64,000 nucleotides of DNA from Pseudomonadota bacterium (GTDB lineage Bacteria > Pseudomonadota > Gammaproteobacteria > Tethybacterales > Persebacteraceae), in contig JAHZKE010000042.1 of assembly GCA_022600535.1 (NCBI GenBank), positions 10,649 through 74,648 on the forward strand, in the 5' to 3' direction. Position numbers and translations under genes: made by a program. Shown piece by piece: positions 2,997 through 64,000 of this stretch. Each line of letters opens with the position of its first letter. Position 1 is the first letter of the stretch. The notes under the pieces were generated by a model, which did not search any database, was not told where the DNA came from, and saw only the letters and a list, made by a program, of their open reading frames with translations.

Positions 2997-4094
2997 ATGC
3001 AAGTTGCTCCTGTTAATTTTTCGCAGTTTGCCTCACTGCCGGATGACGATTGTCAAACGCGTATCAAAGAAGCTCGCGCCCGTCTTGGTGAGCGTGTTGT
3101 GCTACTCGCACACCACTATCAACGCGCCGATGTTTATTGTCATGCCGATTTAACGGGCGATTCGCTCAAGTTGTCGCGCTTGGCTTCGCAAACGCGTGCC
3201 GATTTTATTGTTTTTTGTGGTGTGCACTTTATGGCAGAGGTTGCCGATGTATTGAGTGCGCCCGAACAAAAGGTGATTTTGCCTGATTTATCTGCCGGCT
3301 GTTCTATGGCAGATATGGCTTCGCTGGCAAAGGTAGAGCGGGCGTGGCGCGAGCTGGCAACGGTGTTAGACCCCGACGAAACTATAACTCCCGTAACTTA
3401 TATTAACTCGGCTGCCGATTTGAAATCGTTTTGCGCCCGTCATGGCGGTATTGTTTGCACTTCCAGTAATGCCGAGGCGATTTTAAAATGGTCGTATGCA
3501 CAGCGCGAAAAGGTGTTGTTTTTTCCTGATCAACATTTGGGCAGATGGACGGCACGGCAAATGGGCATGCCGCCCGAAGATATGGCGGTGTGGGATTTTG
3601 ATTTACCGCAGGGCGGGCTAACTGCCGAACAAATTCATCGCGCTAAAATTATTTTGTGGAAAGGGTTTTGCTCGGTACATCAAATGTTTCGCCCGCAGCA
3701 TGTGCTTGATTTCCGCGAAAAACACCCCGAAGGGTTGGTTATTTCTCATCCCGAATGTTGCGAAGATGTCTGCGCATTGTCCGATTATGTCGGTTCTACC
3801 GAAATGATTATTAAAACGATTGCCGCCGCTCCCGAAAACACGCGCTGGCTGGTGGGCACCGAGCTCAATTTAGTGCAACGCATTGCCAAAGAGTTTGCCC
3901 CGCAAGGTAAGGTGATTCGCTTTATGTCGCCGATGGTATGTATGTGTTCTACCATGGCGCGGATTGACCCACCACATTTGGCGTGGGCGTTAGAGTCGCT
4001 TGCCGATGGCGAGGTGGTGAATCAAATTTCCGTCGCCGCTGAGGATGCCGAAATGTCGCGCTTGGCGTTGGAACGGATGCTTTCTTGCTCGTAA
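2997..4094 (+). CDS. nadA: Quinolinate synthase A
   Basis: 365-aa ORF with conserved NadA blocks (VHFMAE, ...CSMADM..., ...HPECC...) and a length that fits the family. Confidence 0.85.
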
Positions 4095-14228: not shown

Positions 14229-14261
14229 TATACAGAGTAATTTATAGATACCGAGAGCTAT

Positions 14262-14492
14262 TTAAATTCCCCTCCGGCGGAAGATGGCAGCACAGCTGAC
14301 GGGGTGGGATAGACAGTTGTCAAGTTTTTAGGTTGTGGCGATGGCGCTGACTGCATCAACAATATTCTCGTCATTTGCCCGATTGTTGCGTTGGTGCACA
14401 CTCTCTAAGGAGTATTTTCTTATCTACCGATTTATTGGCTGTCAGCCCACCCCCTGCCATTCGGCGCTCCCCTCCTCTCAGTGTGGAATTTA
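14262..14492. repeat. MITE-like element: ~55-bp imperfect inverted repeats flanking a ~120-bp core
   Basis: The left arm 'tatttaaattcccctccggcggaagatggcag...ggggtggg' and the right arm 'cccaccccctgccattcggcgc...gtggaatttaaaag' share the reverse-complementary blocks tttaaattcc, (a/g)atggcag and ggggtggg. No ORF lies between the arms. Confidence 0.3.
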
Positions 14493-14560
14493 AAAGTTCA
14501 AACACACTGCGCTTTTTCATTTTATAAAATACGTTTATAAAGTGTAAAATAGCGAGTTAT

Positions 14561-19119: not shown

Positions 19120-21072
19120 TTATGCTGGTGCTTGCGCCTCGCCACTAAAAGCGCTGATTGCCTCTGCCAACGATAATAAACTGGTTTGCTTACTACCCAA
19201 ACGGCGCACCGATACAGTTTTCTGTTCGCTTTCGCGCTTACCGATTGCTAAAATAATCGGGATTTTTTCTTCCGAATGTTGCCTGACTTTGTAGTTAATT
19301 TTTTCGTTACGTAAATCGCTGACCACACGCAACCCTGCTTGCTGTAATTGGGCGACTACCTCCTCAGCATAGGCATTTGCTTCGTCCGTAATAGTGGCGA
19401 CAACAATTTGCGTCGGGGATAACCACAACGGCAAATGTCCGGCATAATGCTCAAGCAAAATACCAATAAAACGTTCAAAAGAACCAATAATAGCGCGATG
19501 ACACATTACCGGGCGCAAGCGCGAACCATCGGCGGCGGTATATTCGGCGTTTAAGCGCTCGGGCAGGACAAAATCCACTTGCCAGGTGCCGCATTGCCAT
19601 TCTCTATCAATCGCATCTTTCAAAATAAATTCTAATTTCGGACCATAAAAAGCGCCATCGCCCGGGTTGAGTGTCCACTCTACTCCCGCTTCGGTGCAGG
19701 CATCACGCAGGGCTTGTTCGGCGCGATCCCATGTTTCATCGCTACCGGCACGCAATGCCGGACGGTCGGAAAATTTAATAATAAATTCTTTAAACCCTAA
19801 ATCTTGATAAATGCTTTCTAACAACCGCACAAATTTAACGGTTTCGGGGGCAATTTGTTCTTCGCTACAAAATATATGCGCATCGTCTTGCACAAAGTTA
19901 CGCACGCGCATAATGCCGTGCAATGCGCCCGACGGCTCGCAACGGTGGCAAGAGCCAAATTCACTCATGCGTAACGGTAAATCGCGATAGCTTTTAATCC
20001 CTTGGTTGTAAATTTGCACATGACACGGGCAATTCATCGGCTTCAACGCAAAAACCGAAGTATCTTCGGGGGCGGCAATGTAGTCGCGCAAACCTGCTTC
20101 GCTTTCGGCAATATACATATTTTCGCGGAATTTATCCCAATGTCCGGAGATTTCCCACAATTTGCGATCGACTAATTGCGGTGTTTTAACTTCGCTATAC
20201 CCCGCCGCTTGCTGTCGCCGGCGCATGTATTCTTCTAACAGACGATATAACAACCAACCCTTGTCGTGCCAAAATATCATACCTGCGGCTTCGTCTTGCA
20301 AATGGAATAAGTGCATTGTCCGCCCTAAAAGGCGATGGTCGCGCTTTTTCGCTTCGGCTAAACGGTCTAAATGTTTGGTTAGGTCTGCCGGCGAATGCCA
20401 AGCGGTACCGTAGATACGCTGTAATTGTGGGCGAGTGGAATCCCCCCGCCAATAACTACCAGCAATATGCGTGAGTTTAAAAGCAGTGCCGACATCGCCG
20501 GTATGGCGCATGTGCGGACCGCGACATAAATCCATAAAATCGCCCTGACGGTAAAAAGAAACATTTTCATCCGCGGGAATCGCCTCTATCAATTCGCATT
20601 TAAATGCTTCCTTGCGTTCTTGATAGTAAGCCGTTGCCTCATCGCGCGACCACACTTCGCGTTCAAAGGGGATTTTTTGTTGCACCAAAGAGCGCATGTG
20701 GTGTTCAATTTTTTCTAAATCTTCCGGCGTAAAAGGTTGTTCGCGATAAAAATCGTAAAAGAAACCCTCTTTAATGACGGGACCAATCGTCGGTTGTGCA
20801 TCGGGATAAAGGTGTTGTACCGCTTGCGCCAATACATGAGCGCAATCATGGCGAATTAAGGTTAATGCTTCTTCGCTGTCGCGTTTGATAAAACACACAG
20901 CACTATCGTTTTCAAGCACGGTGCTTAAATCCGCTAATTGTTCATTAACCAAGCAAGCAACGGCTTGTTTCGCTAATGACGGCGCAATTTCGGCGGCAAG
21001 TTCGCGAGCGTTACTCCCTGCGGCAACGGTTTTCGTGCTTCCATCGGGTAAAGTAATCACTGCCATAGGCAT
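19120..21072 (-). CDS. thrS: Threonine--tRNA ligase
   Basis: 650 aa. N-terminal TGS domain ('MPMAVITLPDGSTKTV'), class-II aaRS motifs and the zinc site 'CRGPH'. Confidence 0.95.
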   Translation of the reverse strand: MPMAVITLPDGSTKTVAAGSNARELAAEIAPSLAKQAVACLVNEQLADLSTVLENDSAVCFIKRDSEEALTLIRHDCAHVLAQAVQHLYPDAQPTIGPVIKEGFFYDFYREQPFTPEDLEKIEHHMRSLVQQKIPFEREVWSRDEATAYYQERKEAFKCELIEAIPADENVSFYRQGDFMDLCRGPHMRHTGDVGTAFKLTHIAGSYWRGDSTRPQLQRIYGTAWHSPADLTKHLDRLAEAKKRDHRLLGRTMHLFHLQDEAAGMIFWHDKGWLLYRLLEEYMRRRQQAAGYSEVKTPQLVDRKLWEISGHWDKFRENMYIAESEAGLRDYIAAPEDTSVFALKPMNCPCHVQIYNQGIKSYRDLPLRMSEFGSCHRCEPSGALHGIMRVRNFVQDDAHIFCSEEQIAPETVKFVRLLESIYQDLGFKEFIIKFSDRPALRAGSDETWDRAEQALRDACTEAGVEWTLNPGDGAFYGPKLEFILKDAIDREWQCGTWQVDFVLPERLNAEYTAADGSRLRPVMCHRAIIGSFERFIGILLEHYAGHLPLWLSPTQIVVATITDEANAYAEEVVAQLQQAGLRVVSDLRNEKINYKVRQHSEEKIPIILAIGKRESEQKTVSVRRLGSKQTSLLSLAEAISAFSGEAQAPA

Positions 21073-21133
21073 TATTTTATCAGTTATCCCAACGCAACAG
21101 TTCGGACTCTATTAAATTCCACACCGACGGAGA

Positions 21134-21268
21134 GGAATTTAACATACGTTAATGAGGCGCTCACTGAGCTTGTCGAAGTGCCCTTAGGTGCAGCAGTACC
21201 GTCAATTAGTATGAGGGAAGTTTGGGAGCACGCTCTGGGGACACTTCGACAGGCTCAGTGAGCGACTG
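21134..21268 (+). repeat. Copy 1 of a ~135-bp extended-palindrome element (23-nt leader, 27-bp stem, 56-nt loop, 27-bp stem)
   Basis: 'ggaatttaacatacgttaatgag|gcgctcactgagcttgtcgaagtgccc|...loop...|ggggacacttcgacaggctcagtgagcgac|tg'. About 95% identical to copy 2. One extra 'a' and two substitutions weaken the second arm. Confidence 0.8.
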
Positions 21269-21547
21269 TCATTGCATAACACCCGCCAATCACTCAACAA
21301 ATAGAAATCATATAAACGGCAGGTCGTTTCTCGGCTGTTGAGTTTTTTTTGTGGTAAGATAAAACTATACTAACTCTATATTTAATTTTTCTTTTACTAT
21401 AAGGAGATATGAATGCCTACACCTAAACCGCCACTTAAAAATACTCCATCCAAAAAAACAGAATAAAGAATCTGGAAAGAGAAGAGACAATGCGCCGCAT
21501 CAATCTATTCCCCAACCAAAGCATCCTAGTAAAAAACAATAAAATAA

Positions 21548-21766
21548 TTGGATAAAATCAACATGACAGAAAAAGAAAAAGAAATATTAAAAATAGTATC
21601 GAAAAATCCTGGAATTCATACGACTGGTGTAGCCGAAAAATTTGATATAGATGATTGGAAAAAGGGGCAAAATAAAACACGTAAGATATTAATGTGCCTG
21701 CAAGAAAAAAAATTTCTTACTTCAGAAAAAATAGGAAAATATAGACGTTGGTGGTGTGTAAAATGA
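21548..21766 (+). CDS. Small winged-helix DNA-binding protein (AsnC/MarR-like HTH only), AT-rich cassette gene
   Basis: 72 aa. 'EKEILKIVSKNPGIHTTGVAEKFDI...KTRKILMCLQEKKFLTSEK' has the helix-turn-helix-wing pattern of AsnC-type N-terminal HTH domains. Very AT-rich with good codon periodicity. Confidence 0.45.
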   Translation: MDKINMTEKEKEILKIVSKNPGIHTTGVAEKFDIDDWKKGQNKTRKILMCLQEKKFLTSEKIGKYRRWWCVK

Positions 21767-21928
21767 TACTTTCTATGAAAGGATAAATATGAATATGCAA
21801 GAAACAAGGTTTATAATTTTAAAAGAAATATCCTACAATTTCCTAAAAATGCACAAAATATACAACATGATAACAAGAATTAATAAAAAAGTATCTTTAA
21901 TTAAATTTTTTATGGTGAGATAAGCAAA

Positions 21929-22564
21929 ATGAAGTTTTTTATACTATTTTGTGGCATTTTATTACTTTGTGGCGCTTCATATTTTTTTGAGATAATACAT
22001 TTTAATGAAAAAATTGAAGGGTTTCAAGATTTGAAATTTGGCATGACCGAAAAGCAAGTAAAATCTACTGAAATTTATAAAAATGGTGTTCTATTGTTTG
22101 GAGAAAAACGAAGAATTATCCCTGTCTATGATCTTGAGGGTCGTGTATTTCAATTTGAGATCATTATGGGAAAACATGATGATAAAATTCAAAATAAATT
22201 GATTAAATTGCTTGATGATAAATATAGATTATCAAAGCAACCATCATTTAGAAGTGTGGTTAATCAACAAATCGTAAAAAATGTGGAAATATTTAATTCT
22301 CACAGTGCTAAAATTAAATATGAGAATGAGAGAGCGCTATCTTGGGATGCTTTTGAAAAATATGAGAGCGAGCTATCTTGGGATTTTGCAGAAGGGCAGG
22401 TATCTTTTGTTAAAACTAAAGAAGCAGACAAAAATCATCTAATACGTTACACAAACGATAAAGAAGTGTACTTAGCTAAAACAACAATGCACTTAGTGTA
22501 TAGGGATAGGGATGTGGTTTATACAAAGGAAGATAGTACAGTGACAACTGAGGATGATTTATAA
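21929..22564 (+). CDS. Hypothetical membrane-anchored/secreted protein (211 aa), AT-rich cassette gene
   Basis: N-terminal hydrophobic helix 'MKFFILFCGILLLCGASYFF', then a hydrophilic domain with no recognisable motif. A plausible RBS-like 'ggtgagataagcaaaATG' precedes it. Confidence 0.5.
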   Translation: MKFFILFCGILLLCGASYFFEIIHFNEKIEGFQDLKFGMTEKQVKSTEIYKNGVLLFGEKRRIIPVYDLEGRVFQFEIIMGKHDDKIQNKLIKLLDDKYRLSKQPSFRSVVNQQIVKNVEIFNSHSAKIKYENERALSWDAFEKYESELSWDFAEGQVSFVKTKEADKNHLIRYTNDKEVYLAKTTMHLVYRDRDVVYTKEDSTVTTEDDL

Positions 22565-22715
22565 TAACCTGTAAAAAAATTACTTATAAATATTTATACG
22601 TTATTAGCTGTTTCGCTACCTCGTCATATTATTTGCTACTTTTCAATTTGCTCCTTATCAAAAAACCACCCCGTCATGTTTCGCTTCGCTACACATGCCA
22701 CCCCTCCGCCGAAGG

Positions 22716-22849
22716 GGAATTTAACATACGTTAATGAGTCGCTCACTGAGCTTGTCGAAGTGCCCTTAGGTGCAGAAGTGCCGTCAATTAGTATGAGGAA
22801 AGTTTGGGAGCACGCTCTGGGGCACTTCGACAAGCTCAGTGAGCGACTG
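22716..22849 (+). repeat. Copy 2 of the ~135-bp extended-palindrome element (perfect 28-bp stem)
   Basis: Arm 1 'gtcgctcactgagcttgtcgaagtgccc' (22738-22765) is the exact reverse complement of arm 2 'gggcacttcgacaagctcagtgagcgac' (22820-22847). It is in direct orientation relative to copy 1, 1582 bp downstream. Confidence 0.8.
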
Positions 22850-22887
22850 GTTTTAAGTTTCGTGCATGGGACTTATCTTTAATTTTA

Positions 22888-22945
22888 CGGGCGAAGCGAG
22901 CTGTTACGAGCGAAGCGCTGTTACGAGCGAAGCAACTGTAGCGAA
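22888..22945 (+). repeat. Short tandem repeat, unit gctgttacgagcgaagc (17 nt, ~2.5 copies)
   Basis: Units sit at 22900-22916 and 22917-22933 with partial flanking copies. Related reverse-complement words (gtttcgcttcgctac, gtttcgctacctcgt) occur at 22600-22700 on the other side of repeat copy 2. Confidence 0.5.
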
Positions 22946-23005
22946 CTATTGCTTAAATCACCAAGTTAATTAGAGATTTAACGTCAATTTCGGGTAGAAT
23001 TAAGC

Positions 23006-24292
23006 ATGGCAAATGAAGTCATTTTTCGCCATTTAGAAAGCAAAGGCGACCTTAGTGATATTGAGGTCTATCGTAGCGTCGGTGGTTATGCCGCGCTTGA
23101 AAAAATCTTGCGTGAACAAACGCCGGCGGCAGAGTTAATTGATGAAATTAAATCATCTGGGTTGCGCGGGCGTGGTGGTGCTGGTTTTCCGACGGGGTTG
23201 AAGTGGAGTTTTATTCCGCGCGGGCTCCCCTGCGATATTTATTTGGTTTGTAATGCCGACGAAGGCGAACCGGGCACCTTTAAAGACCGCGAAATTATGA
23301 TGCGTAACCCGCACCAATTAATTGAGGGAATGGCTATCGGGGCTTACATTATCGGGGCAACACGCGGCTATAACTACATTCACGGTGAAATTTGGGAAAC
23401 CTACGAACACATGGAACGCATGGTACAAGCCGCCACCGAAGCGGGTTTTCTTGGCGATAATATCCTCGGTAGCGATTTTAGTTTTCATTTATTCAACCAC
23501 CACGGTTATGGTGCCTACATTTGCGGCGAAGAAACCGCACTGTTGGAATCGTTGGAGGGTAAAAAAGGGCAACCGCGTTATAAACCGCCCTTCCCGGCGA
23601 GTCATGGTTTGTATAGTATGCCGACGACAGTTAATAATGTTGAAACCTTTGCTTGTGTGCCGTATATCTTACAACACGGCGGCGACCACTTTTTAGAATT
23701 GGGTAAACCGAATAACGGCGGCACAAAACTTTTCTCGGTTTCCGGACATGTAAAACGCCCGGGCAATTATGAAGTGCCGTTAGGCACTCCGTTTACCGAT
23801 TTGCTGGATATGGCAGGCGGGATGCGTAATGGCAAAAAATTAAAAGCGGTGATTCCTGGCGGTTCGTCAGTGCCCATCTTGCCCGCCGAGATCATGATGG
23901 AATTAACCATGGACTACGATGCAATTGGCAAAGCGGGCTCTATGTTGGGAGCGGGTTCGGTGATTGTCATGGATGAATCGGTTTGTATGGTGCAAGCGTT
24001 GCAGCGTTTATCTTATTTTTATTACGAAGAATCCTGCGGACAGTGTACGCCGTGTCGCGAGGGGACGGGTTGGTTACATCGGGTGGTTAAGCGAATAGAA
24101 GAAGGCGATGGCAAACAGGAAGATTTGCAACTATTAGTAGATGTCGGCAATCAGATTGACGGCTTTACGATTTGCGCGCTCGGGGCTGCCGCGGCAACAC
24201 CGGTACGCAGTTTTATCCAACATTTTCGTAGCGAATTTGAAGCCCACATAGAAGGCGGCAAATGCCCGATACCGAATTGTTTTCTGGACTAA
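23006..24292 (+). CDS. nuoF: NADH-quinone oxidoreductase subunit F (NADH-binding, FMN, 4Fe-4S)
   Basis: 428 aa. '[18 protein letters not shown]' is the FMN/NADH glycine-rich motif. C-terminal '[12 protein letters not shown]' is the N3 cluster motif. Confidence 0.9.
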
Positions 24293-34979: not shown

Positions 34980-37442
34980 TTATTCGGTTTCGCCCAAACG
35001 TTGTTTTAAGGTGCGCTCGCGTTTGGAACTGCGCATTTTGCGTAATGCTTTTGCTTCAATTTGGCGAATGCGCTCGCGAGTAACTTCAAATTGCCGCCCG
35101 ACTTCCTCTAAGGTGTAATCGTTGTCAATATCAATGCCAAAACGCATACGCAACACTTTCGCCTCGCGTGGTGCCAATTCGCTGTCAAAAAAGTCGCGCA
35201 AGAATATTTTTTTATCTTTGCTAATGACATTTTCTAGCGGGTCAATCACTGACGGGTCTTCAATAAAGTCGCCGGTGGTGGCATCGTCATCGCCTACCGG
35301 GGTTTCCATAGAAGTCGGTTCTTTGGCAATTTTTAGAATGCGCCGCACTTTATCTAACGGCAATTCCATGGCTTCACTCAATTCTTCCGGTGTCGGATCC
35401 ACACCATTTTTTTGCATCAGCTGCCGTGAGACACGGTTGAGTTTATTGATGGTTTCAATCATGTGTACGGGAATACGAATCGTGCGCCCTTGATCGGCAA
35501 TGGCACGCGTAATTGCCTGCCGAATCCACCATGTCGCATAGGTTGAAAATTTAAAGCCGCGGCGATATTGAAATTTATCCACCGCTTTCATCAAACCGAT
35601 ATTTCCTTCTTGAATTAGATCTAAGAAATGTAGTCCGCGATTGGTGTATTTTTTAGCAATTGAAATGACTAAGCGCAAATTAGAACGCACCATTTCGGTC
35701 TTGGCTTGCATCACTTCGCGCTCACATGAACGCAACTCTTTTTCCACTTCGTTCAAGGTTGCCATGTCCATTTTATTGGCTTTTAAAATGACGATACAAC
35801 GCGATTGCCATTCGACAATTTCGGGAATATATTGATCGGCTGCGGTATTATATTTTTGCGAGGAGATGGATTTAAACCAATCAAGGTTGGTTTCATTTCC
35901 CGGATACAAGCGCAAAAAGTCGGATTTTTTCATCCCCAATTTACGCACACATGCATCACGCACACGGGATTCGATATTGGCAATTTCAAGGGCAATTTCG
36001 TGTACTTTATCGGTCAACAATTTGACTTGCTTTCCCGAATAACAAAAACGCGACATAATTTCCGTCATCTGCTGTTCGTATTCTGCACGCGCATTTTCAC
36101 TGCGGCTACGGCTATGCTTCTGATGTACCTCGGCTAATTGTTTCATCAATTTCAATGTTTTTGTCTTTAACTCCGCTCCTTTTAGCCCGGGCGGTGCCGG
36201 CATTTCCCCTTCTTCTGCTGTGCTTTCGGCTTCCACTCCTACCGTTGTTGTTTCCCCTTCTCCCTCAGCATCGACGTTGTCTAACTCTTCTGCTGCAGCG
36301 ACTTGGTTTTTTTCGTTTTTTTTATCTGCACTGGGCCAATAAAAATCACTGGTAATTGACTCAACATTTCCTTCGTCAAAAATGTCATCAATAATATCTT
36401 CTACCGATACTTTTTTGCTTTTAATTTTTTCTGCATCCTGCAAAATCTCTTCCACAATCAACGGGCATTTGGACAACACTTGCATAATGCCACGCAAACC
36501 GTTTTCGGCACGGCGGGCGATGTATTTTTCTTCATCGCGGTTAAGTAAGTGCGATGAACTCATTTCGCGCATATACATCCGCACCGGATCGGTTGTGCGT
36601 GTATTGCCGACAAAGGCGGAAATTGCCGCTTCGGCTTGGTCGTCAATATCGCTTTCACTATGTCCAACAACCGCCGTTTCGCCTCCCAACATCAACTCAT
36701 CGCGGTCAGGGGTTTTTTCATAAATTTTAATCGCCATCTCACGCAAGATATTGGCAATCACTTCAATTGCTTCGTCGACATCCATCATTTCATCGGGTAG
36801 ATGATCGTTAATGACCGAGTGCGTGACATAACCGTATTTACGCGCATGGTGGAAAATTTCGTACAAACGGGAAATGCTACTTTGCTTATTTGCCTCGCTT
36901 TGTTCACTGTCTGGTGCCGCATTGCTGGCAGATACTTTGGAAAAAGAGAGTTTTCTTTTTACTTTTTCTTCCAACTCGTCATGCATTTTATTGACTGCTG
37001 CGACTTTACGGTCGGCAGTAAAACGTTGCTGTTTACGTTTTCTCGCTTTTTTCGGTTTGGCTAATACGGGTTGTCTGGGGGCGGGTGCTACTTCGGCGCT
37101 TACTACGGCGGGTTTAGCAACGGCTTTGCTTGCTACCTTTGTTAACGGTTTTTTCGGTGCAGTTTTTTTAGCAACCACCGCTTTTTTCGGCGCAACTGCC
37201 TTAGTCGCTTTAGCAACAGCTTTGCTTGCTACCTTTGCTAACGGTTTTTTCGGTGCAGTTTTTTTAGCAGGCGCAACTGCCTTAGCCGCTACTTTAGTGC
37301 CCGCTTTAGCAACAGGTTTTGCTAATTTCTTCGTTGCAACTTTTTTAACTGCTGGTGTTTTTTTAGGCGCAGATTTTGCCGATGAATTGGCTTTTTTTGC
37401 TGCTGATTTGGCGACTGGTGCCTTCGTTTTTTTATCTGCCAT
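34980..37442 (-). CDS. rpoD: RNA polymerase sigma-70 (RpoD) with ~140-aa Lys/Ala/Pro-rich histone H1-like N-terminal extension
   Basis: Regions 1.1-4.2 are all present (for example '[44 protein letters not shown]' and '[28 protein letters not shown]'). The N-terminus is '[39 protein letters not shown]...' with KAP/AKK repeats. Total length is 820 aa. Confidence 0.95.
37113..37300. repeat. 96-nt tandem repeat (2 copies) encoding the KAP-rich repeats of the RpoD N-terminal extension
   Basis: 'tagcaac[g/a]gctttgcttgctacctttg[t/c]taacggttttttcggtgcagtttttttagca' occurs at 37113 and again at 37209. Confidence 0.6.
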
Positions 37443-38699: not shown

Positions 38700-39728
38700 C
38701 TACGCTGTTGTTAGACATTGGGCGATATTATCTACCAACTGTTGCATCATTGTAAAATACAATTCCGCCCCTGCGGGCAGACGACTCCCCAATGGATCTA
38801 ACACTCCGCGGTGCATTTCTTTGGTGGCAATTGTGTTGACGATTTTGTCGGGAAATTGCGGTTCGCTAAAAATACAGCGCGCGCCTTGCTCTTGAATTTG
38901 CTGACGCAATGCCAATAAATGTTTGGCAGAAGCAGGAATATGCGGTGAGAGCATAATCACCAATGGCGGGCGTAGCTGATAACGCTGTTCTATATATTGA
39001 TACGCATCGTGGAAAACGATATAGGATTTTTTTGCGACTGGTGTTAACGTCTGCATGATTTTTTTATCTAAGGCGTCAAGCCGTGCGGTAGTGACTTCGG
39101 CATTTTGTTGATATAACGTTGCGCGTTGCGGATAACGCTGTATCAATACTTCGGCGATTTTACCGACAATCACTTTTGCATTATCTATATCTAACCATAC
39201 ATGCAGATCTTGCGCCTGTTTATCTTCGTGCTCGTCTTCATGCTTGTGCTCGTCTTCATGCTTGTGCTCATCTTCGTGCTTGTGCTCGTCTTCGTGCTTG
39301 TGTTCGTCTTCATGCTCGTTTTTATGTTCTTCTTCGTGATGTTCATCGTCTTCTTCGTGATGGTCGTGCGTGTGTTCACTGCGTTGCGCTAACCAATGGA
39401 TAGCGGGCTGTTGTCCGACAGCAAACGCCTGCGTGGTATCGGCATTCGCCAATATCGGCGACAACGATTTTTCTAATTGTGGGTGCATATAAAATACAAC
39501 ATCGGCATCGTGTACTGCCTGCACATGTGAAGGTTTTAATACATGACCATGCACGGAGGACTCTTCTGAAAAAATCAACTGCGCCGTTTGGCTCTCGCCT
39601 AACACCGCTTGCACTAAAGAGTGCAACGGTTTAATACTGGCGGCAATTTTCACCTCAGCAGCAACGGCAATGGGGTTGATGAAGGCGGCAAGTAGCAAAG
39701 GGAATAATAGTTGGCTCAATCGGTGCAT
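38700..39728 (-). CDS. znuA: Zinc ABC transporter substrate-binding protein ZnuA with His-rich loop
   Basis: Signal peptide, cluster-9 SBP fold motifs and an internal 'HEDEHKHEDEHKHEDEHKHEDEHKHEDEHEDK' His/acidic loop typical of ZnuA. Divergent from zur-znuCB. Confidence 0.85.
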   Translation of the reverse strand: MHRLSQLLFPLLLAAFINPIAVAAEVKIAASIKPLHSLVQAVLGESQTAQLIFSEESSVHGHVLKPSHVQAVHDADVVFYMHPQLEKSLSPILANADTTQAFAVGQQPAIHWLAQRSEHTHDHHEEDDEHHEEEHKNEHEDEHKHEDEHKHEDEHKHEDEHKHEDEHEDKQAQDLHVWLDIDNAKVIVGKIAEVLIQRYPQRATLYQQNAEVTTARLDALDKKIMQTLTPVAKKSYIVFHDAYQYIEQRYQLRPPLVIMLSPHIPASAKHLLALRQQIQEQGARCIFSEPQFPDKIVNTIATKEMHRGVLDPLGSRLPAGAELYFTMMQQLVDNIAQCLTTA

Positions 39729-59675: not shown

Positions 59676-61886
59676 ATGATTACCCGAGAGTTAGAAAAAA
59701 ATATCAACACCGTACGCACCGATGCCCGTCGTCGTGGTTTAGAACACCTGACGATTGAGCATCTGGCATTGGTTTTACTGAATGAAAACACCGCCGTACA
59801 AGAAATGTTATTAGACAGCAGTGCCGATACACACGGATTAAAAAACAAACTCAAACAATTTATCACTTCCAAAGTGCCGCCAGCAAAATCCTACGGCGAT
59901 GAGCCGCAACCGACCGCCGGCTTTAAACGCACCTTGCAACGTGCCGTCAGCGATAATCAATCAAGCCAATCTATTAATGGTCTGCATATTTTAGTGGCGA
60001 TTTTTTCCGAACCCGAATGCTATGCTTCCTATTATATGCAGAAATACGGCATAGAACGCTTGGCGTTACTCGCGCGTTTAGCGCAACAAAACGAACAAAC
60101 CGCCACCGACAACAGCAAAAAAAGTAATGCGGCAGATACCGACTTAGTTGCCCAAGCAAACAGCGGTCAATTAGAAAAACCCAGCGGACGTTTAGAAGAA
60201 ATTAATATGCTGATGCGCGTTTTATCTTGCAAATATAAAAACAATGCGTTGTTAGTCGGCGATCCCGGAGTTGGAAAAACCGCAATCGTGCATGCCTTCG
60301 CTCACCATGTTGCCGCTGGAGAAGTGCCGGCAAATATGCGCGGCATGCGCGTGGTGCCGGTTAATATCGCCGAACTCGTTGCCGGCACAAAATACCGCGG
60401 CGACTTTGAACAACGCGTGCAACAATTAGTTGAAAAATGTCGCGCCCACGGCAATACCGTTATTTTTATTGATGAAATTCACACCATCATCGGTGCCGGT
60501 GCTGTTTCTGGTGGCGTTTTAGATGGGGCAAACATTCTCAAGCCGATGTTAGAAGAAAAAAATGTCCGCTATATCGGTGCCACCACACAAGCCGAATACC
60601 GCCGATTTTTTGAAAAAGATCGCGCCTTAACGCGTCGCTTCACAAAAATTAACATTGAAGAACCCGACGAAGAAACCTTACAAACCATCTTGCAAGACAC
60701 TGTCAAACGCTTAAAACAGCACCACGGCGTTGATTATGCGAACAACACCATCAACAGTGCCATCGAGTCATCGCGGCGCTATATTTCGAACCGTTGTCTG
60801 CCCGATAAAGCCATCGCCCTGTTAGACGAAGCCGGCGCCCGACGACAAATACAAATGTCTGATGCCCGCGATAACACGCCAATTAGCAAAGAAGAAATTG
60901 AACAGTTAGCACGAAAAACTTCGGGGCTACCGCCGCTGTATCAAGAAGAAAAAGCACAATTAGCCACCTTAGAAGAAAAACTAACCACCGCCGTATTAGA
61001 GCAAGAAGAAGCCGCTAAACGATTAGCGCGGGCAGTGTTGTGCAGTCAACTGGATTATCAAGAGGCACAAACCGTCATTGGCGCTTTTTTATTTTATGGT
61101 CCCACGGGGGTCGGCAAAACCGAAATGGCACGCCAACTCGCGCAACACTTAAAAATCCCCCTATTGCGTTACGATATGTCAGAATATATGGAACGCCACG
61201 CGGTTTCACGCCTCATCGGTGCGCCGCCGGGGTATGTCGGCTATGAACAAAGCGGCAAACTGGTTGAAGACGTGAGCCAACATCCCAACTCGGTCATTTT
61301 GTTTGATGAAATAGAAAAAGCCCACCCCGATGTATTAAACATCTTGTTGCAAATACTGGACTACGGCACACTCACCGATAACAACGGACGCAACACCAAT
61401 TTTAACGGCACACTGATTATCCTCACCTCTAACTTAGGCAGTAGCGAAATGGAACGCAGTATTGCCGGCTTTGAACGCGAAGCCAACTACCACAGCGACG
61501 ATGCCGTGCGTCATTTCTTTACTCCCGAAATGCGCAACCGCATTGATGCATTAATCCGCTTTCAACCCTTATCGGCAGAAACAATCGCCCATATTACCGA
61601 TCTGCAATTGGACCACGCGCTGCGACAAATCGCCAGCAATAAAAAAATTCGTGTCAAACTCAGCAATAAATTACGCACCCAACTGAAAAAAGAAAGCTAC
61701 TCGCCGGACATGGGCGCGCGCCCCTTAAAACGACTCATTAAACAAAAAGTATTAGAACCGTTAGCACTTGCCGAAGCCAATGGCATTATTTATAACGGCG
61801 GCTCCTACTGCTTAGACGAAACAGGCATTACCACACTACAAAAACAACGCACCCGCACCAAGAAAAAAGTACCGGTAACCGCTTAA
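59676..61886 (+). CDS. clpA: ATP-dependent Clp protease ATP-binding subunit ClpA
   Basis: 736 aa. N-domain repeats. Two AAA+ modules with Walker A 'GDPGVGKTAI' and 'GPTGVGKTE'. It has no ClpB-type middle domain, which favours ClpA. Confidence 0.9.
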   Translation: MITRELEKNINTVRTDARRRGLEHLTIEHLALVLLNENTAVQEMLLDSSADTHGLKNKLKQFITSKVPPAKSYGDEPQPTAGFKRTLQRAVSDNQSSQSINGLHILVAIFSEPECYASYYMQKYGIERLALLARLAQQNEQTATDNSKKSNAADTDLVAQANSGQLEKPSGRLEEINMLMRVLSCKYKNNALLVGDPGVGKTAIVHAFAHHVAAGEVPANMRGMRVVPVNIAELVAGTKYRGDFEQRVQQLVEKCRAHGNTVIFIDEIHTIIGAGAVSGGVLDGANILKPMLEEKNVRYIGATTQAEYRRFFEKDRALTRRFTKINIEEPDEETLQTILQDTVKRLKQHHGVDYANNTINSAIESSRRYISNRCLPDKAIALLDEAGARRQIQMSDARDNTPISKEEIEQLARKTSGLPPLYQEEKAQLATLEEKLTTAVLEQEEAAKRLARAVLCSQLDYQEAQTVIGAFLFYGPTGVGKTEMARQLAQHLKIPLLRYDMSEYMERHAVSRLIGAPPGYVGYEQSGKLVEDVSQHPNSVILFDEIEKAHPDVLNILLQILDYGTLTDNNGRNTNFNGTLIILTSNLGSSEMERSIAGFEREANYHSDDAVRHFFTPEMRNRIDALIRFQPLSAETIAHITDLQLDHALRQIASNKKIRVKLSNKLRTQLKKESYSPDMGARPLKRLIKQKVLEPLALAEANGIIYNGGSYCLDETGITTLQKQRTRTKKKVPVTA

Positions 61887-61892
61887 TATTCC

Positions 61893-62912
61893 ATGCTACG
61901 AAAAAATATTTTACTGGTGCTGATATTGGCACTGACAAGCACCCCGCTCGCCATCGCAAATAATTTTAGCGCAGATGCACGGGTGCAAACCTATATTCAA
62001 CATCTGCAACAAGAACACGCTTTTGCACCGGAAGAATTAAATCATTTTTTTGCCAAACTGACTTATAACGATAAAGTGTTGCGTCTCCTCGGTGTTCCCG
62101 ATGCTGATGACGAAGCCAAACCCAGCAAACCACCCAAAAAAGTATATTGGCAACAGTATCGCAAACAACGCCTTAGCGCAAAAAAAATTGCCAGCGGCAT
62201 TCTTTTTTATCGCCAACATCAAGATTTATTAGACCAAGCAGAAGCCCAATACGGCGTGCCGGCAGCCATTATTGCGGCGATTATCGGCATTGAAACGCAT
62301 TACGGCTTGCACACAGGGCGCTACCTCGTTGCCGAAACATTAGCGACATTGGCATTTGGGCACCCGCAACGCGGAGAAGAATTTTTAAACGAATTGACAG
62401 AATTTTTACTCTACGCCCGCGAAACCCGCATTGACCCGCTTAGCATTGCTGGTTCCTATGCCGGTGCTATCGGGATGGCGCAATTTATGCCGAGTAGTTT
62501 ACGCAAACATGCAGTTGACTTTAACGGCGATGAACGCATTGATTTATTTATCGCTGCCGATGCCATCGCCAGCATTGCAAACTTTTTAACCGCTCACGGC
62601 TGGCAGCGCGGTTTTGCCGTGGATTATCCCGCTACAATAGATAACTTACAAAGCAAAGCCCTGATTGAACGCACCCATAACAATGACTACCGTCCGGTAA
62701 TGGACATTGAACAACTGCGCCAGTACGGGGTGCAAACCGATGCCCCTGCCACTGGTGCACATTATTTATTTGTAGATTTAGAAAACCGCTACGACACCGA
62801 GTATCGCATTGGCAATGAAAATTTTTATGCGCTAACACGCTATAACAAAAGTTTCAAATACGCCGCTGTCGTTAGCGATTTAGCCCGAGAAATAGCCAGC
62901 GGCGTGAACTAA
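61893..62912 (+). CDS. mltB: Lytic murein transglycosylase B-like (MltB/Slt35 family)
   Basis: Signal peptide. 'AIIGIETHYG' and 'SYAGAIGMAQFMPSS' are the catalytic-Glu and lysozyme-like fold motifs of the MltB family. Confidence 0.8.
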   Translation: MLRKNILLVLILALTSTPLAIANNFSADARVQTYIQHLQQEHAFAPEELNHFFAKLTYNDKVLRLLGVPDADDEAKPSKPPKKVYWQQYRKQRLSAKKIASGILFYRQHQDLLDQAEAQYGVPAAIIAAIIGIETHYGLHTGRYLVAETLATLAFGHPQRGEEFLNELTEFLLYARETRIDPLSIAGSYAGAIGMAQFMPSSLRKHAVDFNGDERIDLFIAADAIASIANFLTAHGWQRGFAVDYPATIDNLQSKALIERTHNNDYRPVMDIEQLRQYGVQTDAPATGAHYLFVDLENRYDTEYRIGNENFYALTRYNKSFKYAAVVSDLAREIASGVN

Positions 62913-63002
62913 CTTTTGCCAACCGCTCCCTGAGCATGCTTGGCCCCTCCGTTAGTATGGAATTTAAAAAGCACTTTCAACAAACTGCTATAATCACACT
63001 CT

Positions 63003-64000
63003 ATGAATATGGAATTTATTAACACGCAGGAAAATTTCTGTACCCTGTTAAACGACTTACTCACACGCGCCAAAAAAAGCGGTGCCGATAGCGCCGAGGC
63101 AAGTGTCTACGAAAATAGCAGTATGGAAGTTTCCGTGCGCTGTGCAGCGTTGGATAACATGAGTATTAACCGCGAACAAGGGGCTTCATTAACCGTTTAT
63201 GTCAACGGCAAAAGCGGTAGCGCCACCTCCTCCAATACCACCCCTGCCACTTTACAAACCCTCGTTGAACGCGCGTTAGCGATTGCGCGTGCCACCTCCT
63301 CTGACCCGCACGCGGGGCTTGCTGATGCGGCATTAATGGCGACTGATTTTCCCGATTTAGCGCAATATCACCCGTGGCAAATTACCCCCGAAGACGCGAT
63401 TGCAATTGCCAAAGAAAGCGAAGAAGCCTCGTGGACAACAGACCCCACTATCCAGCGCAAAAAAAGCGACGGCGCCAGCGTTAGCACCTCGCGCACACTC
63501 AGCGCCTACGGCAACACGCATGGCTTTACTGCCAGTGAAAAAGTCAGTAGCCATAATATTTCATGCAGTGCCATTGCCGAAAAAGACGGCATGATGGAAA
63601 CTAACGGTTGGTCGGAAACCCGACGCAATGCCGAATGGTTACCCAGCGCACAAACCATCGGCGAGATTGCCGGCAAACATGCTGCCAGACGCTTAGGCGG
63701 CAAAAAAATCAGCGATTGCCGTGCAGCAGTTTTATTTCAAGCCCCAACGGCGCACTCACTCATTGGGCATTTTGTCGGTGCTGCCAGCGGCGGTTCCTTA
63801 TTTCGCAAATCTTCATTTTTACTCAACAAATTAGAGAGCGCCGTTTTTGCTCCTCACATCAACATCCGCGAACGCCCTTATCTTGCCGGAGAAATGGCAA
63901 GCGGCAGCTATGACGATGACGGTGTTGCTCCGCAAGATCGGGATATTGTCAAAAATGGCATTTGGCAAGGGCGCTTTTTATCGGCTTACAGCGCGCGCAA
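63003..64000 (+). CDS. pmbA: Metalloprotease PmbA/TldE (3'-partial, continues beyond window)
   Basis: 'MNMEFINTQENFCTLLNDLLTRAKKSGADSAEASVYENSSMEVSVR...' matches the PmbA/TldD family N-terminus. No stop before the window end, so it is absent from the ORF track. Confidence 0.75.
   Translation, partial: MNMEFINTQENFCTLLNDLLTRAKKSGADSAEASVYENSSMEVSVRCAALDNMSINREQGASLTVYVNGKSGSATSSNTTPATLQTLVERALAIARATSSDPHAGLADAALMATDFPDLAQYHPWQITPEDAIAIAKESEEASWTTDPTIQRKKSDGASVSTSRTLSAYGNTHGFTASEKVSSHNISCSAIAEKDGMMETNGWSETRRNAEWLPSAQTIGEIAGKHAARRLGGKKISDCRAAVLFQAPTAHSLIGHFVGAASGGSLFRKSSFLLNKLESAVFAPHINIRERPYLAGEMASGSYDDDGVAPQDRDIVKNGIWQGRFLSAYSAR

Follow-up and report, generated by a model that had tools for sequence, protein, structure and literature searches.

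The spacer between thrS (19120-21072, - strand) and nuoF (23006-24292, + strand) in a Pseudomonadota bacterium assigned to the Persebacteraceae holds two copies of a strongly structured unit of 135 bp, and the question raised by this locus is what kind of element such a unit is and whether it acts as DNA or as RNA. We analysed a stretch of 64,000 nt from contig JAHZKE010000042.1 (assembly GCA_022600535.1, positions 10,649 to 74,648 of the forward strand; this whole stretch is called the window here), in which copy 1 occupies 21134-21268 and copy 2 begins at 22716. A preliminary description of copy 2 had offered three candidates: a recombination site, a strong bidirectional terminator or insulator, or a small structured RNA gene. 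None of the three is directly supported by what we find. The unit is a doublet of two inverted hairpin modules of 21-29 nt, separated by a 54-nt private spacer and preceded on one side by a leader that comes from a second genome-specific repeat. We think it probable that this doublet is a non-coding, dispersed palindromic repeat acting at the DNA level, a gene-less member of a module family whose doublets resemble REPINs (repetitive extragenic palindromic (REP) doublets forming hairpins). As a single element it is ordinary in kind, a palindromic dispersed repeat like others; it is the family that appears unusual.

Structure of the unit and divergence of its two copies

The arms of copy 2, 29 nt each, are 100% complementary and enclose a loop of 54 nt (coordinates are collected in Table 1). 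The preliminary description had recognised the perfect stem and had put it at 28 bp with a 56-nt loop; the perfection of the stem carries over to our measurements and the sizes do not. This arm pattern occurs four times in the window and in none of 100 shuffles. Folded as RNA, a 140-nt stretch spanning copy 2 reaches -74.8 kcal/mol (z = -11.4) for the + strand and -72.0 kcal/mol (z = -12.1) for the - strand; folded as DNA, each strand comes to about -45 kcal/mol (z about -12). Copy 1 lies 1582 bp upstream in the same orientation, a direct repeat 95% identical to copy 2, with arms that are 90% complementary. All four arms carry the exact core with its CAC/GTG closure, and the window contains only these two units (four modules). 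Ahead of the first arm stands the 22-nt leader GGAATTTAACATACGTTAATGA, on one side of the unit only, as had been described, identical in both copies and absent from the rest of the window; it holds the small palindrome TTAAC-ATAC-GTTAA, where a small hairpin is predicted. Similarity between the copies runs on for about 15 nt upstream of the leader, into a box of the form CCYCTCCG-N7-GGAATTTAA, such that the direct repeat starts at 22701 and 21119 and the unit measures about 149 bp with the box. Identical copies are present in other assemblies of the same population. The folds, the one-sided leader and the second copy thus bear out the earlier view of the unit as strongly structured, polar and recurrent.

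The preliminary description had also read the two copies as one intact and one decaying, with purifying selection on pairing in copy 2 and drift in copy 1. By alignment the copies differ at six sites, three in the arms and three in the loop. The arm differences are 21157 (G in copy 1, T in copy 2) in arm 1 and, in arm 2, 21252 (G/A) together with an additional A at 21241; the inserted A had been correctly assigned to the second arm together with two substitutions, of which one belongs to arm 2 and the other to arm 1. The loop had been called conserved, and it is similar without being identical, with differences at 21194, 21198 and 21217 (3/54). Divergence is spread evenly (arms 3/58, loop 3/54, leader 0/22), and selection on one copy with drift in the other is not supported. 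Comparison of the four arms places every one of the three arm changes in copy 1 as the derived state, but three against none is a weak imbalance (binomial p = 0.25); one of them, A>G at 21252, is simply the second common allele at a position that is R/Y throughout the family. None of the substitutions in the loop is compensatory.

The unit has no coding capacity and ends in its 29-bp inverted arms. Gene callers in public assemblies (L122-L124) place an open reading frame (ORF) of 68 aa, 22676-22882, straight across copy 2; it has no Pfam match, and it is probably spurious, an artefact of the repeat. We liken it to spurious ORFs in many other genomes, whose tails read SSTGSD, LRQAQ, LSLSK or ELVEG. 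Small size, lack of coding content, 29-bp terminal inverted repeats and a possible origin from a gene-carrying element by loss of its interior are all reminiscent of a MITE (miniature inverted-repeat transposable element). The unit differs from a MITE in having no target-site duplication and no evident DDE transposase partner, in carrying a one-sided leader within the repeat, and in that its "terminal inverted repeat" is itself a hairpin module that is also found alone. Around neither copy did we find a target-site duplication or a larger palindrome; alignments of the flanks stayed at chance level and gave no common direct repeat.

Integron attC sites, too, are structured palindromes (60-140 bp) that follow one another in direct orientation with small ORFs between them. 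Chromosomal cassette arrays of Vibrio show a similar arrangement of structured palindromes beside small ORFs, and the two units might be taken for a cassette array without an integrase (CALIN), being imperfect, structured palindromes that measure about 135 bp, share one direct orientation and flank small promoter-less ORFs. We rejected this reading because the R''/R' geometry is absent: no R''/R' boxes (RYYYAAC ... GTTRRRY) stand at opposite feet of the hairpin, TTAAC and GTTAA lying together in the leader. Copy 2 also has no extrahelical bases, no integrase gene (intI) is seen near the locus, and the arms come from a different, widespread family. That the units are attC sites therefore strikes us as extremely improbable.

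The hairpin module in other genomes and in viruses

That family became visible in a scan of one genome per species for the exact 21-mer CTCACTGAGCYTGTCGAAGTG of the arms, which occurs in at least 116 genome stretches, complete chromosomes included. The figures on distribution, pair geometry and by-catch given below cover the module copies among the matches listed (116 genome stretches). The 21-mer is present in Gammaproteobacteria, Bacteroidota, Actinomycetota, Chloroflexota, Campylobacterota, Chlorobiota, Cyanobacteria and Lentisphaerota, and also in KSB1, Calditrichota, Marinimicrobia, Margulisbacteria and Clostridia; a 19-mer version has matches in 77 viral or prophage stretches. What recurs is the module and not the unit as a whole: leader and loop occur in none of the 116 genome loci listed as module carriers, the shared part being only 21-26 nt of the arm. 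The loop had two matches in JGI metagenomes, both due to chance and inside an unrelated coding gene, and a plasmid BLAST with the unit gave no match.

What is conserved is a core of 13 nt, TGAGCYTGTCGAA, which reads TTCGACARGCTCA on the opposite strand, and the 3-bp stem that closes it varies yet stays complementary (CAC/GTG, CCC/GGG, GGC/GCC, GTC/GAC, TGC/GCA). To keep the covariation test from becoming circular, we limited it to the 99 by-catch instances without the CAC/GTG closure of the search. Closing pairs 1, 2 and 3 are Watson-Crick in 93%, 83% and 78% of these, falling to chance from pair 4, and all four pair types are found at positions 2 and 3. In 77 of the 99, two-sided compensatory changes fill 81 cells, compared with 29 +/- 5 after shuffling (0/500 shuffles reach 81), and pairing in these 77 instances is 94% in register and 30-60% with the partner slid. 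Mismatches of the G.T and A.C kinds occur at about the same frequency, a pattern that suits DNA better than one strand of RNA.

Module copies are 78% intergenic, and only 5/199 intergenic copies lie between divergent genes. They show little bias in strand relative to the upstream gene, and their position is mostly downstream of a gene, whichever way the module points. Neighbouring copies form 76 inverted and 45 direct pairs, and most spacers measure 14-72 nt. The module often forms the tip of longer, variable stems, obvious terminators among them (for example in L078), and in some variants a hairpin is inserted in the middle of the core.

Short palindromic modules that are intergenic, lie downstream of genes and often form inverted doublets folding into one long hairpin are the hallmark of REP sequences, of bacterial interspersed mosaic elements (BIMEs) and of REPINs. 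The preliminary description had raised a REP- or ERIC-type (enterobacterial repetitive intergenic consensus) family as one that the element might match; in spirit it does, as part of a widely dispersed palindromic repeat family, and it is neither a canonical REP nor an ERIC. REP sequences are lineage-specific, whereas the module's core is common to distant phyla and to phage contigs, and its conserved part is a 13-nt loop and not a stem. In canonical REPs the palindrome has a conserved tetranucleotide, GTAG or CGTC, at its foot (Di Nocera 2013, PMC3733652), and the arms AGTCGCTCACTGAGCTTGTCGAAGTGCCC have no such tag at their ends. The same paper contains no CTGAGC, GCTCAG or CTTCGA string and a single TCGAAG, in an unrelated consensus. 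Our literature search turned up no description of the module, and the family appears to be unusual and undescribed, defined by a hairpin loop that crosses phyla and by its tie to minimal GIY-YIG nucleases (see below).

The strong fold might instead suggest that the long hairpin is itself the functional product, of a structured small RNA gene or of a cis-acting RNA element. A search of the whole window against Rfam at gathering thresholds, a check that had been proposed, returned 4 tRNAs only, with no family at threshold for either unit. Scanned permissively, the locus and eight module-rich loci yielded generic hairpins (miRNA precursors) and RF02901 (AaHKsRNA41), all of them below threshold, and no ribozyme or known motif. 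RF02901 deserves closer comparison, as it is classed as a small RNA (sRNA): it is an RNA-seq candidate from Aggregatibacter with no known function. Its consensus consists of two inverted modules, GCUGAgCUUGcCGAAGC...GgUUCGgCAAGcUCAgC, with an apical region of about 35 nt between them, the same doublet-hairpin design, and its modules are near-identical to those of the unit (CUGAGCUUGcCGAAG against CUGAGCUUGUCGAAG). Only the arms align, however; the unit lacks the second hairpin and the terminator that make up the model's 3' part, and the scores (copy 2, 40.9 bits on the + and 39.6 on the - strand; copy 1, 32.8 and 34.0) stay far from the gathering score of 97. The unit is not a member of RF02901. 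Weak matches to this model also fall on module arrays in unrelated loci, and its source study reports that 35 of the sRNAs have near-identical sequences at other loci.

Two further points favour an RNA. In one orientation the core could, judging by its letters, add U-A, G.A, A.G and G-C pairs around a 5-nt loop with a variable Y, and that strand shows a small energy advantage; and the A>G change at 21252 makes a G.U wobble on the + strand only (-66.6 against -57.9 kcal/mol). Against this, the two strands of the doublet fold equally, members of the family stand in both orientations to genes, G.T and A.C mismatches are symmetric, inter-copy loop differences are not compensatory, and leader and loop are not conserved outside the source genome. 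Promoter-like sites near the unit are no commoner than after shuffling, and the scan called no canonical terminator. The hairpin is no evidence of a new RNA gene, and we consider that explanation unlikely. A hammerhead-like reading of CUGAGC...CGAAG was rejected on inspection, since the CUGAUGA box and G8 are absent and Rfam gives no support. A resemblance to the T-loop and D-arm of tRNA (UUCGA, GCUCAG) was set aside too, with no consistent pairing and no tRNA-like match.

Association of the module with GIY-YIG genes

To our knowledge, the only established partner enzymes of REP- and REPIN-type repeats are Y1 transposases (RAYTs, REP-associated tyrosine transposases). When the ORFs beside modules were clustered, one small family recurred, a GIY-YIG nuclease (PF01541) of about 100 aa in the UPF0213/Slx1-like group, whose closest solved structures are 1ywl and 1zg2 (PMC1564403). 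No NCBIfam model names this GIY-YIG subfamily. At two loci (L095 and L036) inverted modules stand on both sides of the gene, with CACTGAGCYTGTCGAAGTG about 30-40 nt before the ATG and GTCTTCGACARGCTCAGAC over the last codons. Because these loci had been chosen by module, we retested the association in loci chosen by protein alone. In four such genomes of Flavobacteriaceae (Aquimarina, Aestuariibaculum, Seonamhaeicola and Gillisia) a module lies 45-76 nt upstream of the ATG in 4/4, as a one-mismatch variant in one of them, and the inverse module lies at the stop codon or no more than 40 nt past it in 4/4; arrays of solo copies are nearby.

The protein sequences carry the same mark. In 73/120 homologues the last 14 residues include an in-frame translation of the module (...SSTGSD* or ...SSTSSD*), encoded by TCTTCGACA[G/A]GCTCAGAC-TGA, and the same tail pattern occurs in the first 90 residues of only 3/120. 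An exhaustive protein search returned 9,738 representatives at E <= 1e-3; among the best 150 of the 9,738, which are far more diverse, 33 contain module translations, against a mean of 1.8 in shuffles, and GC-rich forms such as VRPELVEG and STSSPRT appear. Two loci selected by module extend the pattern: in a gammaproteobacterial gene (L018) a doublet ends 9 nt before the ATG, and in a fragment from Margulisbacteria (L082) a module lies about 35 nt after the stop.

This arrangement recalls the REPIN-RAYT system, in which the enzyme gene is flanked by inverted module copies and most copies lie far from it, with the difference that the gene here encodes a minimal UPF0213/Slx1-like GIY-YIG nuclease and not a Y1 transposase. 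The association goes in one direction only, as one RAYT gene stands to hundreds of REPs. Since inverted module pairs bracket GIY-YIG genes elsewhere, we read the 135-bp unit as a gene-less, non-autonomous form of such an element, standing to it as a REPIN does to its RAYT gene. A stronger claim, which we put forward tentatively and with considerable doubt, is that minimal UPF0213/Slx1-like GIY-YIG nucleases recognise and propagate a whole family of hairpin modules, cross-phylum and undescribed, to which the unit belongs as a non-autonomous member. We propose that the nuclease may recognise or cleave the extruded hairpin, and that repair or recombination could then spread or maintain the modules. 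The two units might have been born by duplication or recombination at a rearrangement breakpoint and have come to enclose foreign AT-rich DNA; on the stronger claim, the outer modules, 21155-21183 (called here the GA orientation) and 22820-22848 (the UU orientation), would have captured 1.45 kb of foreign cargo. The polarity of this outer pair is the same as that of the modules around GIY-YIG genes.

Several observations weigh against both the REPIN-like reading and its extension to the nuclease. An HMM (hidden Markov model) search found no GIY-YIG gene in the 64-kb window, nor is there one in the 77 module-bearing viral loci (665 kb), and just 4/116 module-selected genome loci, among the matches listed, contain one. 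The protein-chosen test covers Flavobacteriaceae, and elsewhere the association consists of tail signatures and the two module-selected loci L018 and L082. A lone 19-nt module is unstable by nearest-neighbour rules (-0.4 kcal/mol). Few inverted pairs are long-armed like this unit, the arms being complementary well beyond the core in about 8/76, and the perfect 29-bp doublet is therefore the rarer "homodimer" form. No insertion polymorphism was found, and mobility is something we infer. Nor was an empty site found in the relatives compared below, because they differ in gene order and are without the module.

To the best of our knowledge, the function of the UPF0213/YhbQ/Slx1 group in bacteria is uncharacterised, and we found no paper that links GIY-YIG, UPF0213 or YhbQ proteins to such repeats. 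If the claim of recognition and propagation were true, the family would be a GIY-YIG counterpart of REPIN-RAYT and would give a function to a long-uncharacterised protein family. If the link proves to be functional, it would also provide a testable substrate for UPF0213 proteins, reveal a second enzyme class servicing REPIN-like elements, and explain the source of very common spurious small ORFs (tails ...SSTGSD, LRQAQ, LSLSK, VRPELVEG).

Some further observations concern the genes and their arrays. Many close GIY-YIG homologues (P0122-P0241) lie on very short contigs of 0.5-2.5 kb. Such contigs are typical of multicopy sequence that breaks assemblies, which suggests that the GIY-YIG gene and its flanking modules may be repeated within genomes. 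Dense arrays of 8-16 modules per roughly 1 kb occur in L130 (2060-3985), L131 (2072-3122), L095 (3506-4316), L112, L019 and L042; their modules often alternate regularly by closing-stem type, like BIMEs, and GIY-YIG genes sit inside such arrays. In L036, a Flavobacterium locus, a Flavo-1 RNA (RF01705; 49.5 bits against a gathering score of 42) is found at 3165-3236 and does not overlap a module.

The thrS-nuoF locus and its second repeat

Both units are intergenic. Copy 1 is part of the upstream region of thrS, 62 nt from the start codon (21072, - strand) and at a junction that has been rearranged. Copy 2 follows ORF 21929-22564 at a distance of 150 nt and precedes nuoF by 157 nt. An exact look-up with the thrS protein matched no record. 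Gene order was compared with that of three relatives. In two of them (L126 and L127, NuoF 80-84% identical) the genes pfkB-TIM-secG-clpB-SLT_2 stand directly before nuoF, with a spacer of about 50 nt, and in a third (L125) a PMT_2-family gene is upstream of nuoF; the module is absent from all three. In the window the clpB-SLT_2 block is at 59676-62912, 37 kb from nuoF. The block is next to nuoF in two relatives and apart from it here, and the thrS-nuoF spacer is therefore one side of a lineage-specific rearrangement. The locus is a rearrangement breakpoint with foreign DNA.

Table 1. Parts of the two units and other features of the locus (window coordinates)
Feature	Position	Strand	Remarks
Leader box CCCCTCCGCCGAAGGGGAATTTAA, left edge of copy 2	22701-22724	+	Shares its final 9 nt with the start of the leader
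Copy 2 leader GGAATTTAACATACGTTAATGA	22716-22737	+	Identical in both copies, absent elsewhere in the window
Copy 2 arm 1, module in GA orientation	22737-22765	+	Core TGAGCTTGTCGAA at 22747-22759, closed by CAC/GTG
Copy 2 spacer (loop), 54 nt	22766-22819	+	Private to the source genome
Copy 2 arm 2, module in UU orientation	22820-22848	+	Core TTCGACAAGCTCA at 22826-22838
Copy 1 leader	21134-21155	+	
Copy 1 arm 1	21155-21183	+	
Copy 1 loop	21184-21238	+	
Copy 1 arm 2	21239-21267	+	
Copy 1 cores	21165-21177 and 21245-21257	+	
AT-rich islet between the units, 1.45 kb	21269-22700	+	27-32% GC against 45-52% in the host
17-nt tandem repeat GCTGTTACGAGCGAAGC, 3.1 copies	22885-22939	+	Just downstream of copy 2
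Inverted box directly left of copy 1	21112-21135	-	With the leader start forms TTAAATTCC-N13-GGAATTTAA
Third box copy, in the spacer after SLT_2 (62913-63003)	62944-62967	+	On the other side of the rearrangement

The islet between the units has two ORFs. The first (21548-21766, 72 aa) gives weak winged-helix matches just under the Pfam cut-offs; the second (21929-22564, 211 aa) has an N-terminal hydrophobic segment, and its product has no homologue among 5.8 billion sequences, matching only itself. Searches of PHROGs and PADLOC with the islet ORFs gave nothing informative. Two direct repeats, 95% identical, that bracket foreign-looking AT-rich DNA could be the duplicated attachment site (attL and attR) of an integrated islet, that is, a site of site-specific recombination, and a related 24-nt box at the other synteny breakpoint would be in keeping with this. 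However, the islet has no integrase or recombinase, only the ORF with weak winged-helix matches and an orphan; an att core is short and identical, whereas these repeats measure 135-149 bp and show 6 differences; and the arms are a ubiquitous repeat module and not specific to this locus, with no empty site in relatives. An attachment site is thus a distinctly remote explanation for the pair.

The position of copy 2, past the last islet ORF and ahead of nuoF, and the GGTTTTAAGTTT that follows it raise another possibility, namely that the unit is a terminator or insulator, placed between the islet and nuoF in the case of copy 2 or shielding thrS in the case of copy 1. Family modules do lie downstream of genes, at times on the tips of obvious terminator stems. 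A 29-bp stem with a 54-nt loop is nonetheless far from the geometry of an intrinsic terminator, and the terminator scan did not call it; the tail of copy 2 is only weakly U-rich, and neither side of copy 1, which belongs to the upstream region of thrS, has a T-tract. Termination would also leave unexplained the cross-phylum core, the two-sided flanking of GIY-YIG genes and the module in their last codons. We judge this explanation improbable, and a terminator role is at most a secondary, exapted effect. In our main reading, copy 2, when transcribed with its GGTTTTAAGTTT tail, may incidentally help to stop islet transcripts from running on to nuoF.

The leader takes the argument beyond the module. 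The 24-nt box CCYCTCCG-N7-GGAATTTAA has 3 matches in the window against 0 expected, and GGAATTTAA by itself has 7 occurrences against 1.4 expected. The box in the spacer after SLT_2 is identical to the flank of copy 1 at 20/24 positions (p about 0.003 against shuffles), and related repeats are thus present at both breakpoints of the rearrangement. An inverted pair of boxes (TTTAAATTCCCCTCCGGCGG... / ...CCCCTCCTCTCAGTGTGGAATTTAAA) at 14261-14494, in the intergenic region 14229-14560, encloses about 200 nt; its terminal repeats are perfect over 10 bp, there is more complementarity in its interior, and it looks like a second genome-specific element, MITE-like or structured. Because the box recurs at 62944-62967 and at 14261-14494, the leader is part of a second small repeat family of the source genome. 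The spacer after SLT_2 also holds an arm-like fragment, CGCTCCCTGAGCATG.

Other features of the locus are of less consequence for the unit. The last 25 nt or so before the nuoF start (TCGGGTAGAAT...ATG; 22980-23005), with a -10-like TAGAAT/TAAAAT, are common to the three relatives (L125-L127) despite the rearrangement, and this similarity suggests that a putative proximal promoter or leader of nuoF is conserved. The 17-nt tandem repeat beside copy 2 contains GCGAAGC three times, and GCTTCGC is present upstream of copy 2. Beside this tandem repeat, at about 22941-22961, the contigs of three independent assemblies of metagenomes break off. Elsewhere in the window, tandem repeats are found at 1928-2539 (102-nt units, 5 copies), 37113-37304 (a 96-nt duplication) and 39193-39366 (18-nt units, 8 copies), all of which, by their coordinates, appear to lie inside coding regions.

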